From the IMG/VR virus record IMGVR_UViG_2563366990_000013: a DNA stretch of 13,230 nucleotides. One strand, given 5' to 3'. Each line of letters starts with the position of its first letter. Position 1 is the stretch's first letter. Of the stretch, positions 9,001 to 12,000 are shown piece after piece. Origin of the DNA: a virus (Duplodnaviria > Heunggongvirae > Uroviricota > Caudoviricetes). A program made the position numbers.

Positions 9001-12000
9001 TTCACTACGGACGGTTTCAGGCCGGTAGCGGCGGCATTACGGAAAACATCACTCCCCATGGCGCTTTTCTCATCCGTGAAATAACGGTTGTCCGGGCGCA
9101 CCTTTTCAATGCGTTCCGCTGGTCTGGACGCACCATTCCCGTTAATTTCAATGCGGACTTCATTCGGGTCCCGGAACCGCACCGTCGGGTAAATGCTCCC
9201 GTTACCATCCTCCGCATTTTCAGGCTGTGACTGTGCTTCCGGCGTCACTTCCTGTTGTGGGCGAATGACTTCTCGTATTGCCTGAAACTGTTGTTCTTCA
9301 GTCTCGGTGCGCTCCTCTTTCTGGCTGAGTCTGCGGTATTCCTCAAGCAGTTCAGAACGCGGCTTCGCCTTCAGCTCATTCATCACAGCCTGTCGCTTCG
9401 CCTGTTCGTCCAGTTCATTCAACAACTGGCTGGCAGCTTCCCGGCGATGAGCTGCGGATGCGTCACCCTCTGTTGCCATATCCGCATCAGCATACTGTTC
9501 CAGAAGCTGCTCGCGATTCATGCCCTGCATGGATTCACGATGCTGTGCCACCGGATCAACCGGTTCGGGTTGCGGGGCTGCGTCGTCCTGCTGCACGGTT
9601 TCAGCATCACGCATGGCTGCTTCTTCTGCGGCCTGACGTCTGCCACGATATCCGGCAACCGCACCGAATGGAGCCCCCATCGCAGCACCGAAAACAGTGC
9701 CTTCAATCCCTGCGTCAGTCACCCCCTCCCATGGCGATACATCCATTCCGGCGGTCTCACGCAATGCCATGTTTTCCTGATAGCGCGAATAGGCGTTCTG
9801 TGCCCCGTTAATTACGCCCTGTTCCGTGGCATTTCTGACAATGCCGCTTTTAACGGTCTTCGCTGTGCCTCGTGTCACCAGATTAAACAGTTGTGCGTCA
9901 CCCAGTTTTGCCGCCATGGCATTCACAGCCAGCAATTCAGGATCGGTTGCCAGCTGCGCGCGCACCTCATCGGCAACACGCTCTTTTGCCAGATCCATTT
10001 TCTGGCGATCAGTAAGCTGTGCATGCTGCGGGTCGGCGTCAATGGACAAAAACGTCTGCTGAAATTTCGGTGACTGCGCCAGCTCAGAGTAATCCGCATT
10101 AAGAACAGCATCTGCTGCCGCCATTGCACTCTGCCCCTGTGCACTGGCTGTGGAATGGGTGATCAGGCCCGCCTGGAATAAATCCGGCATTTTTTTATCG
10201 ACAGCTTCTGCTGCCAGTGCCGTGGCTCTTTCCGGCTGCATCCCTGCCGCGATGTATTTTTTCTCCAGCCCGGCGGTCAGCATTTTTCGCAGTGTGACAT
10301 CACCCACCTTTCTAGCCACACCGCCAGCAACCATATCAGGTACAAGCGCACCAATCAGGTTTACACCCTTCGCCAGCAAGACCGCAGAATCATCATAGCC
10401 TTCTGTTATCGGCGTATTCAGCGCACGAACAGCACCTGGCGACATCTGTTCTGTCAGCCATTCATCCGAGGCTTTGGCACCATCACTGACAGCCTTACCG
10501 GTTGCTTTCAGACCTTTACCGACAGTATCAGTGACCACGTTTTTTCCATCAGGCAGGGTATCGATGACCTCATCAGCCCCCCTGCTGCCACCGGCAAAAA
10601 TATCCTGAACAGTTGCGACACCCGGTAGCCCCATACGGCTGAACTCATTTAAAATACGCGCCCCTGTTTTTACCGGGCTCTGAATCATCGCATCACCGAG
10701 TCCACGGGCCATTTCCCCTGTTCCCCGGACGGACTGGGCAACACCTTTACCCATTGTTGGCAATACATCACCGAGGCTGAACGATGTGCTGTGATCAATG
10801 GCATTCTGCGGGTTGCTGAAAAAATCCTGCCAGTAATTTTCTCCCGGCTGCTTAATGTTCAGGCTGCTGCGGTTCTGGTTACCCAATTGCGCTTCAGGGC
10901 GCTGCTCATCTGAAAAAGCCATACAGACTCCAGTAAAAAAAAGCCCGACACGATGGTCGGGCGTAAGTGAACGATATTAACGGGGAGCGCGTTACTGCCG
11001 CATATCTTTACTTCATCCAGCCTTTGATCTTCTCGGCAGCTGCGGAAGCGCTATAATCCAGCGCCTTTTCATGCTCTGCCTTTTTATCCCGGAGGTGATT
11101 CTGGTAATAAATTTCCACCTCCTTTTCACGACCAGGTTCCAGCAAAGCAGGCGCATTGGCGGCAGCCTCTTTTACAAACTCCTGTTTAACCGGATCGCCC
11201 GCCGCCCACGTCTGCCACTTCTGTAAAAGCTGTTGCGTTTTCCGTTGCTGAACTTTCTGTTGATGCGGCTGTAAACCATTCGCAGCATAAAATTCATCCA
11301 CCTCAGCCTGAGCATCACGGCCATTCTTGATCGCATCCGCCGCTACGTTGCTGGCTACTTCCTGAAGTTTCGCCAGAGAAAGTCCCTGCTGCTTCGGCAT
11401 AAAATAACCATAATTTTTCGATATCTCTGCAAATTTGCTGCGATCCCTGACCTGAGCGATAGCCTTATCAACGGGTATCGCCAGCACGGTTTGATCATCA
11501 GGGTGCGCACTGCCGTATTCTGTTACAGGTTTATGCGCGGTGGAGCCATCGCTGTATGTGAGATCAAGGCCAATAAGTACGTACCCTTCCTGCTGCGCCG
11601 GTACGATACTGCCAATCCTGGCCTCTTTTATCGTTTTCTCCCCGGTTGAATCAGGCATGCCAATACGCTGTTGTAGTTCCGGGGCAAACACGCCGGAAAG
11701 CACATCGAGATTTTCCGGGGTATTCAGCGAAGCAATCGCCCTGTCCGGCTTATCATCAAAGATTTTCTGCAGGTTGTTCACGGCCTGACCCGCTTTCGCA
11801 GCATAGCCTACCGTTGACATCATCTTAAGCGGATTGGCGTCCGATAATTTACCGAACAGATGAGAAGCCGCATCATGGTCACCCGCATCAATCGCTTTTC
11901 CCAGCGCCGCCATCACAGGCTGATCGCGCGCCAGCATATCGTTATACTCAAGCCGTCGCTGGTTGTATTTCTGCAACTGGAGTCGTTGCTGTTCCATCCC

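Follow-up and report, generated by a model that had tools for sequence, protein, structure and literature searches.

How is a gene transcribed when a terminator-like hairpin stands directly in front of its start codon? The question is raised by 13,230 nt of tailed-phage DNA (Caudoviricetes; IMG/VR record IMGVR_UViG_2563366990_000013), referred to here in its entirety as the window. The sequence-only reading had described a hairpin plus T8 tract in an 85-nt minus-strand spacer, 12 nt before the ATG of a giant ORF, and each of these details was confirmed. Coordinates are listed in Table 1.

Table 1. Features of the window (positions in the window; strand as indicated).
Feature	Position	Strand	Details
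Upstream gene, homologue of Sp5 ORF79 (ECs1241)	11008..12270	-	420 aa; from ORF list; phrog_601, 1.4e-191
Intergenic spacer, TAA of 420-aa gene to giant-gene ATG	10923..11007	-	85 nt
TAATAT hexamer flagged by the sequence-only reading	10974..10979	-	no promoter-like match there
Predicted terminator hairpin, GCCCGAC-CATCGT-GTCGGGC	10943..10962	-	7 bp, 6 GC, -13.8 kcal/mol, z -4.55
Stem arms	10962-10956 + 10949-10943	-	7 pairs, 6 of them GC
Hairpin loop, CATCGT	10955-10950	-	6 nt
T8 tract (U8 as RNA)	10935..10942	-	abuts closing G-C pair
Shine-Dalgarno GGAG	10928..10931	-	5 nt 5' of ATG 10922-10920
Giant gene, polyvalent protein	2535..10922	-	2,795 aa, 8.4 kb; LPD5, LPD1, MuF_C and LPD38 domains
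Sibling terminator-like hairpin after YadA-like gene	878..907	-	11 bp, dG -20.4 kcal/mol
Divergent mosaic patch versus Sakai Sp5	10765..11240		sliding identity in MAFFT alignment 48-80%, flanks 90-100%

On the same strand as the 420-aa gene, the hairpin begins 45 nt downstream of that gene's TAA (11010-11008). Between the T8 run and the giant-gene ATG lie the 12 nt ACTGGAGTCTGT, in which GGAG starts 4 nt past the U-tract; in a fold of the junction the Shine-Dalgarno sequence was left free by the hairpin. The site combines a GC-rich stem-loop, a short loop and an adjoining U-tract in sense orientation, and it is intergenic and located 3' of a stop codon, as expected of an intrinsic terminator. 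That the terminator is strong is a prediction from this anatomy. By homology the 85-nt spacer corresponds to a 68-nt spacer in 933W-type phages, whose stop codon (CAGTAA) can still be recognised as a remnant in the longer one.

When the isolated hairpin was shuffled, none of 200 shuffles folded as stably. Using a strict criterion (no mismatch in a stem of 7 bp or longer, 5 or more GC pairs, loop of 3-8 nt, and a run of 7 or more T no further than 1 nt away), 10943-10962 was the sole site in the window with both strands scanned, and when the window was shuffled 2,000 times with dinucleotides preserved, a site of this type occurred in 1 shuffle. A loose consensus scan of the window gave no enrichment (13 sites against 14.2 expected), so the non-random part is the quality of this one site and not the number of sites. 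The whole 121-nt region folded with z = -0.23; structure is therefore confined to the hairpin, and the spacer is otherwise unstructured. An Rfam scan of the entire window at E <= 1 matched nothing.

In IMG/VR the junction was located at 45 loci, and the T-tract/Shine-Dalgarno/ATG pattern matched 47 contigs. Hairpin, T-tract, Shine-Dalgarno sequence and ATG were kept in every contig with a located junction, as they were in phages from three genera of Sepvirinae (Traversvirus, Diegovirus and Oslovirus). The T run varied from 7 to 9 T across relatives, and the Shine-Dalgarno region GGAGTCTGTATGGC was unchanged in 12 of 12 distinct sequences. Across the same 12 sequences all stem positions paired (83/83 cells, 100%), compared with at most 43% when the partner was slid. 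Three stem variants were seen, with A-U exchanged for G-C at one pair and G-C, G-U or A-U at another. Two pairs were altered on both sides, and the observed covariation score was reached by 0 of 500 shuffles, a figure that reflects few independent events in three stem types only. From these alignments, structure rather than sequence appears to be conserved in the stem, on the strength of those few events. A metagenome scan with GGAGTCTGTATGGC yielded one true homologue among the 80 loci listed and no new stem variants; a second IMG/VR scan, with the T-tract/Shine-Dalgarno pattern, returned essentially the same contigs, one extra, and no further variant.

In Sakai the hairpin and T-run before ECs_1242 lie at about 1,295,986-1,296,012 of NC_002695.2. 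The mosaic patch that diverges from Sp5 takes in the hairpin together with ~75 codons at the 3' end of the upstream gene and ~50 codons at the 5' end of the giant gene. The compensated stem was maintained inside this patch, which is only 48-80% identical to Sp5. The spacer 5' of the stem was poorly conserved, and a second upstream stem of the window type was missing in 933W-type spacers.

The 420-aa protein had no match in Pfam and was 79% identical to the Sp5/933W homologue at the protein level (tblastn). In a homologue search, the 120 matches listed were all at least 77% identical, and every organism-named one was from E. coli; distant relatives, found solely by tblastn against phages, were Vibrio phages. 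A scan of genome contigs with the same protein gave one match, a 552-bp contig labelled Xanthomonas pisi that shares 93% identity with the gene of the E. coli phage and is probably contamination. Sp5 ORF79 is needed for tail assembly (Mondal 2016, PMC5155283), and ORF79 and ORF80 are each essential (PMC5155283). The giant protein is homologous to Sp5 ORF80 and to phi24B gp47, which published phi24B work describes as abundant in virions. These findings on the homologues speak for expression of the giant gene.

The promoter scan found no sigma-70-like site on the coding strand between the giant gene and the upstream end of the window. The proposal that no room is left for a dedicated promoter past the terminator was upheld, with only 12 nt from T-tract to ATG and no promoter-like match there. 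The TAATAT hexamer upstream of the hairpin, which had been flagged as a weak -10-like element, is present but is not a conserved -10: the position reads TAATAC in 933W-type and L014-type loci and TAATCT in loci L002, L005 and L016, and the hexamer was accordingly rejected, since most relatives carry one of these two forms.

Over the 1.8 kb searched, the window was 100% identical to a Stx2b-converting, 933W-like short-tailed prophage of E. coli 04-00955. The sequence-only reading had called for a search of the wider element for an antiterminator gene, and a Q gene was found (PF06530, E = 3.5e-45; positions 22481-22906 of locus L051), ~33 kb upstream of the hairpin on the same strand. A promoter-like TTGAAA-16-TAGAAT is present at that gene's 3' end (L051 22903-22930). 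No tR'-like hairpin with T-tract was found in this prophage within ~300 nt of this promoter-like site; the first strong coding-strand sites beyond it (at least 5 GC pairs) lie at 26918 and 27577. A hok pseudogene and hsdM/hsdS are located between Q and stx2b. In the annotation (NZ_CP035498.1, 1794480-1836445) the late genes are all on one strand and run unbroken from Q through the lysis and virion genes to the hairpin.

We consider it likely that 10943-10962 is an intra-operon Rho-independent terminator in the Q-antiterminated late operon of this 933W-like Stx2b prophage. Late transcription would begin at the late promoter beside the Q gene, ~33 kb upstream. RNA polymerase modified by Q, and thereby terminator-resistant, would pass the hairpin/U8 and its sibling terminators, and the giant virion-protein gene would be transcribed within the late polycistronic RNA and translated from its own GGAG. 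Polymerase lacking the Q modification, whether it started spuriously or at moron promoters near lom and hok that are active in lysogens, would stop at the hairpin, and in the lysogen the 8.4-kb gene would thereby stay silent. The hairpin probably does stop unmodified polymerase, and we infer that Q is what overrides it. The earlier suggestion that the giant gene is reachable only by terminator read-through in a Q-type late operon is supported by the lambdoid Stx2b nature of the prophage, the Q gene, the absence of a promoter in the scan, the 12-nt distance from T-tract to ATG, the similar induction and equal RPKM of the flanking genes (below), the essentiality of the gene in Sp5 and the abundance of its phi24B product in virions.

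At least six other hairpin plus T-tract sites were found in the same late operon. These sibling sites, intergenic and on the coding strand, follow the genes for the portal and major capsid proteins, the next gene, lom, the ECs1237 homologue and the YadA-like gene; the first five (portal through ECs1237 homologue) are present in Sakai Sp5 as well. A tight layout of stop codon, hairpin, T-tract, Shine-Dalgarno sequence and ATG was seen at four junctions, the one at 10943-10962 and three more, with 14-18 nt from stem to ATG and 12-15 nt from the leading T-run to ATG. The same layout stands before small genes of 129, 153 and 218 aa.

For expression across the site, published RNA-seq of EDL933 was used, in which the hairpin is of the 933W type and Z1494 (upstream gene) and Z1495 (giant gene) were assigned via gene order. 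Upon ciprofloxacin induction the upstream gene rose 17.2-fold and the giant gene 20-fold. In LB the RPKM was 12 for Z1494 versus 14 for Z1495, and 10 other conditions were similar (among them 8/6, 10/13, 8/8 and 18/44); no drop in RPKM across the homologous hairpin was seen in these data. Co-induction of the flanking genes with the late genes, together with read-through in vivo, was observed in the 933W homologue in EDL933, a different strain. A poorly terminating hairpin would likewise account for equal RPKM on either side when cultures are not induced. RPKM of the upstream neighbours in LB was uneven (Z1488 2, Z1490 48, Z1491 2, Z1492 151, Z1493 17), which hints at lysogen-active promoters nearby; polymerases from there, if they reach the hairpin, are not visibly stopped.

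These figures bear directly on whether the hairpin is a programmed attenuator that halts a constant proportion of polymerase, even when modified by Q, and keeps the giant protein low relative to the upstream product. The hairpin immediately precedes an 8.4-kb gene, relatives differ in T-tract length (7 to 9), and for the intra-operon terminators of phage L partial termination has been put forward as one of two roles (PMC8022706). Against it stand the paired RPKM values and the induction ratios given above, the abundance of phi24B gp47 in virions, and the occurrence of the same layout ahead of the three small genes. We regard attenuation as unlikely, and the idea that a costly 2,795-aa protein is deliberately held down gained no support from the RNA-seq figures or from the company of small genes.

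Similarly improbable, in our estimate, is RNA punctuation without termination, by which the hairpin would shield a processed upstream 3' end while the U-tract served as an S1 ribosome landing site boosting the giant ORF. Protein S1 binds U-rich leaders, the hairpin leaves the Shine-Dalgarno sequence unsequestered, and the hairpin/U-tract/Shine-Dalgarno/ATG layout is common to four operon junctions. Against this, a perfect GC-rich stem that runs straight into U7-9 is what marks an intrinsic terminator, and neither role requires such geometry; moreover, punctuation is compatible with termination in a Q-antiterminated operon and not exclusive of it. A broader version, to which we likewise give little weight, would take the four junctions of the Sepvirinae late operon as modular punctuation that insulates late genes from lysogen-active promoters and segments the >30-kb late RNA after induction, with the 7-9 U as a tunable ribosome landing pad for the giant gene or, alternatively, with the terminated 3' end as a lysogen sRNA. 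If true, late RNA segments would have their stability and translation set separately.

Much less probable is that the site is simply the 3' end of an sRNA made in lysogens from the 3' UTR of the upstream gene, with hairpin and U-tract as an Hfq-binding module. The anatomy is compatible, and in Stx phages terminated transcripts do give rise to Hfq-binding sRNAs, StxS at tR' being one (PMC7547250); but Rfam has no match in the window, the sequence 5' of the stem is poorly conserved, the second upstream stem is missing in 933W-type spacers, and RPKM of the upstream gene is low in EDL933 lysogens. A true end of the transcription unit, with a separate giant-gene promoter that overlaps the hairpin or lies beyond it, is the most improbable of all: such an arrangement may exist in the distant Vibrio phage D70, where a hairpin plus T-rich site after an ORF79-like gene is followed by ~75 nt with a promoter-like TTCACC-17-TATGAT and then a 3,066-aa gene, but here there is neither space nor a scan match, the candidate -10 hexamers lack the conserved A at position 2, and the giant gene of EDL933 is induced along with the late genes.

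Predicted terminators inside lambdoid late operons have precedents. One is P22-like phage L, in whose late operon intra-operon terminators were predicted; their roles were stated as not known, with partial termination or the halting of non-antiterminated transcription proposed (PMC8022706). In both cases hairpin plus T-tract sites separate virion genes within a late operon that has a single promoter and a Q/gp23 antiterminator (PMC8022706), whereas the present junction belongs to the Sepvirinae lineage with an N4-gp56-type capsid, precedes a polyvalent giant-protein gene, and is documented both by compensatory changes in the stem and by published expression of the two flanking genes. As in the PR'-tR'-Q system of lambda and 933W, a PF06530 Q is encoded upstream; in Stx phages Q carries PR' transcripts past tR' into stx, lysis and late genes (PMC7547250). 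By contrast, tR' is a promoter-adjacent regulatory terminator that yields StxS sRNA, and 10943-10962 is located ~33 kb downstream and is not known to yield a regulatory product. In Sakai Term-seq, tR' was the only terminator reported (PMC7547250). Terminators flanking morons (promoter-gene-terminator cassettes such as lom and bor) are likewise late-region terminators beside lysogen-expressed genes, and in this prophage hairpin plus T-tract sites come after lom and the YadA-like gene; the gene upstream of the present hairpin differs in being an essential morphogenetic ORF79 homologue without a paired promoter in the scan.

T-phi of phage T7 is a hairpin plus U-tract after the capsid gene, inside the late unit, and some polymerase continues to the downstream virion genes. 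T-phi acts on T7 RNA polymerase, and downstream RNA is measurably lower. The likeness is that of an internal hairpin/U-tract terminator within a late transcription unit; here, however, host polymerase with Q is expected, and the published RPKM of the EDL933 homologue has no drop.

The conserved hairpin is thus an ordinary feature of lambda-like phages of a known kind, one of several in the late operon; a new mechanism is not indicated and the practical value is modest. The junction settles where the giant gene starts: the ATG used in the 933W RefSeq record, next to the hairpin, is 13 codons too early. It also offers a conserved, compensated case in which the roles of intra-operon terminators in lambdoid phages may be tested. 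For the short-tailed Stx phages, the essential giant ejection-type protein would come from the promoter-distal portion of the late RNA that depends on Q, and its production would therefore be tied to the switch that controls Shiga toxin.

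Every detail of the sequence-only reading of the junction (an 85-nt spacer with a hairpin and T8, then the Shine-Dalgarno sequence (SD) and ATG of a 2,795-aa ORF) was checked and holds.

Features at the junction upstream of the giant gene (window coordinates)
Feature	Position	Strand	Remark
420-aa ORF	11008-12270	minus	stop codon TAA at 11010-11008
Spacer, 85 nt	11007-10923	minus	between TAA of the 420-aa ORF and ATG of the giant ORF
Hairpin GCCCGAC-CATCGT-GTCGGGC	10962-10943	minus	read from sequence
T8 tract	10942-10935	minus	directly after hairpin, then ACTGGAGTCTGT
Giant ORF, 2,795 aa	10922-2535	minus	ATG at 10922, runs to 2535 (ORF list)

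A consensus terminator scan returned a 7-bp stem (6 GC pairs) and a loop of 6 nt. Folding of the isolated hairpin gave -13.8 kcal/mol (z = -4.55); the 121-nt region as a whole showed no unusual stability (z = -0.23). Using a strict criterion (perfect stem, 7 bp or longer, with 5 or more GC pairs; loop of 3-8 nt; 7 or more T no further than 1 nt from the stem), the site was the sole match on both strands of the 13.2 kb; of 2,000 dinucleotide shuffles, just 1 yielded such a site. The site is therefore correct in all details and not a product of chance.

All 45 IMG/VR loci with a locatable giant-gene junction kept hairpin, T-tract, GGAGTCTGT and ATG; in a pattern scan of IMG/VR for the T-tract/SD/ATG motif, 47 contigs matched. 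Hairpin, T-tract, SD and ATG are also kept in phages of the genera Traversvirus, Diegovirus and Oslovirus. Three stem types were found: GCCCGAC/GTCGGGC (window type), GCCCGGC/GCCGGGT (type of 933W, the Stx prophage of EDL933) and ACCCGGT/GCCGGGT. In the 12 distinct sequences compared, no cell of the 7 stem pairs departed from standard pairing; one pair alternates between A-U and G-C, and another goes from G-C to G-U and A-U. With the partner slid by 1-3 columns as control, pairing was at most 43%. Because independent events are few, this covariation is supporting evidence and not proof. In phage P27 (L221 1700-1725), the 3' arm is one G short (GCCGG instead of GCCGGG) and the stem shorter; this may be genuine variation or a homopolymer sequencing error. 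In place of the hexamer TAATAT, previously noted as a weak -10-like element, most relatives have TAATAC or TAATCT, so TAATAT is not a conserved -10.

The 420-aa protein matches phrog_601, lacks a Pfam domain and is a homologue of ORF79 (ECs1241) of the Sakai prophage Sp5. The giant protein (domains LPD5, LPD1, MuF_C and LPD38) is a homologue of Sp5 ORF80 (ECs1242). In-frame deletion of either Sp5 gene abolished infectious particles with DNA packaging intact, and both deletions were complemented in trans (PMC5155283). The 2,811-aa homologue gp47 of phi24B is abundant in the virion, unseen in the cryo-EM map, and proposed by its authors to be an ejection protein (preprint 10.64898/2026.04.10.717836). 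From these phenotypes and the abundance of gp47, the giant gene must be well expressed in lytic growth. Compared with Sp5, a patch of ~475 bp (window ~11240-10765) is only 48-80% identical, with flanks at 90-100%. The hairpin lies inside this patch, yet is preserved by compensation, and T6+ and GGAGTCTGTATGGC are unchanged. The patch exchanges the final ~75 codons of the ORF79 homologue together with the opening ~50 of the giant gene, as a single unit, a pattern that would fit an interaction of the former protein's C-terminus with the latter's N-terminus.

In the 933W RefSeq record (NC_000924.1, L226 1697), the giant CDS starts 13 codons upstream, at an ATG beside the hairpin 5' arm, where the window has ACG (10964-10962). 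This start is probably misannotated, since the downstream GGAG-N5-ATG is conserved in all relatives. An 83-aa glycine-zipper protein (window 12281-12532) is named 'bacteriocin' in many records and, clearly wrongly, 'N4-family major capsid protein' in one; phi24B virion proteomics detected a 'homolog of a bacteriocin', set aside by the authors as contaminant. A 552-bp contig from Xanthomonas pisi DSM 18956 (NZ_JPLE01000287.1, L050) encodes the first 136 residues of an ORF79 homologue with 93% identity to the E. coli phage gene and is probably contamination.

Window 10500-12300, 1.8 kb spanning the site, matched E. coli 04-00955 (NZ_CP035498.1) at 100% and many Stx-converting short-tailed phages, e.g. 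933W, Sp5, phage 86 and ArgO145, at 86-94%. By annotation, the 04-00955 prophage sits between rcsB and rcsD, with the order integrase, early genes, Q, hok pseudogene, hsdM/hsdS, tRNAs, stx2b, lysis genes, terminase, portal, N4-gp56-type capsid, tail fibres, lom, hok, YadA-like gene, four small genes, 420-aa gene, giant gene, second YadA-like gene and 157-aa gene. All genes from Q onward lie on one strand. The proposed search of the wider element for an antiterminator gene was thus answered by Q (PF06530, 3.5e-45), ~33 kb upstream of the hairpin. A promoter-like site (TTGAAA-16-TAGAAT) overlaps the 3' end of Q; no obvious tR' hairpin with T-tract was found within ~300 nt of it (L051, the prophage stretch with Q). 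Between Q and stx2b (L051 22900-27600) lie a frameshifted hok/gef, hsdM, a short hsdS and a methyltransferase remnant.

A 359-nt gap separates the giant gene from the YadA-anchor gene downstream of it (931-2175, minus strand). Coding-strand promoter-like sites are present at the gap/start-codon boundary (2192-2163) and inside its 5' end (2106-2077 and 1967-1938), and an 11-bp terminator hairpin (907-878, -20.4 kcal/mol) at its end. Sp5 and 933W lack this moron-like cassette (window 878-2534); their giant gene is followed by genes on the opposite strand.

Seven strong coding-strand intergenic hairpins with T-tract were found in the 04-00955 prophage: after the portal gene, the major capsid gene, the gene next to it, lom, the ECs1237 homologue, the 420-aa gene (the present site) and the distal YadA-like gene. 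All but the last are shared by Sp5 (6/7), and stx2b is also flanked by such sites. Four junctions including the present one have a compact order of stop codon, hairpin, T-tract, SD and ATG, placing the start codon 14-18 nt past the stem and 12-15 nt past the leading T-run. Being common to four junctions, this layout is a general design of the operon, nor is it peculiar to the giant gene, since it also stands before genes of 129-218 aa. Several loops share a TCAT/CATCGT-like motif, which may be chance (locus L001: portal, 38305-38282, CCCCGTCATCGTACGGGG; next gene, 35462-35444, CCCGCGTCATGCGGG; present site, 20463-20444, CCGACCATCGTGTCGG).

Published expression data were used for EDL933, whose 933W prophage carries the 933W-type hairpin. 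With ciprofloxacin, the ORF79 homologue (EDL933_RS07005) rose 17.2-fold, the giant gene (EDL933_RS07010) 20-fold, other 933W late genes 17-45-fold, and the giant protein 51.7-fold at 12 h (PMC11125564 S1 Table). In strand-specific RNA-seq of uninduced cultures, RPKM of Z1494/Z1495, assigned by gene order to the genes flanking the hairpin, was 12/14 in LB and 8/6, 3/2, 2/3, 10/13, 0/1, 2/4, 8/8, 1/3, 18/44 and 0/1 in ten further conditions (PMC4048457 Table S4). LB values fall along the operon (stx2 175-328, head genes 35-181, tail genes 24-160; PMC4048457), with no step at the hairpin. Adjacent upstream genes are uneven in LB (Z1488 2, lom 0, Z1490 48, Z1491 2, Z1492 151, Z1493 17; PMC4048457), which points to promoters active in lysogens, stable RNA fragments or mapping effects in that stretch of the late region; the Z1492 homologue is at window 12542-12994. 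From like induction and equal RPKM on both sides, transcription crosses the 933W hairpin in vivo without measurable loss. The equal uninduced values are most simply explained by RNA from a spontaneously induced, Q-positive minority of cells; a weak terminator would also fit. Deliberate attenuation keeping the giant protein scarce, as also proposed, is not supported, given these RPKM and induction numbers, the reported abundance of gp47 and the generality of the compact layout.

The upstream Q gene and the expression data support the main proposal, that the giant gene is reached by read-through in an antiterminated late operon. The site is best interpreted as an intra-operon intrinsic terminator of a Q-antiterminated lambdoid late operon. 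The hairpin is predicted to end transcription by unmodified polymerase, with Q as the overriding factor; Q-modified polymerase would read through, and the hairpin would probably serve to stop polymerase not started at the late promoter.

More distantly, ~60-kb Vibrio phages encode an ORF79-like protein (27.7% identity over 126 residues). Downstream of this gene in Vibrio phage D70 lie AAGCCCGC-CTAGT-GCGGGTTT and its T-rich tail, then ~75 nt with a promoter-like site, then a 3,066-aa gene; the hairpin at this boundary (L053 14916-15035) looks bidirectional (A-tract, stem, T-rich tail). D70 resembles the window in having a terminator-like boundary within the same gene pair, but differs in having space for a promoter between hairpin and giant gene.

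Q control of the late transcript is established for Stx phages (PMC7547250). Intra-operon terminators of the same kind were described in the P22-like phage L, whose authors considered them not unique and their roles not known, with partial termination or a block on spurious transcription as possibilities (PMC8022706). The present feature is a new, well-conserved example of this already known kind of element.
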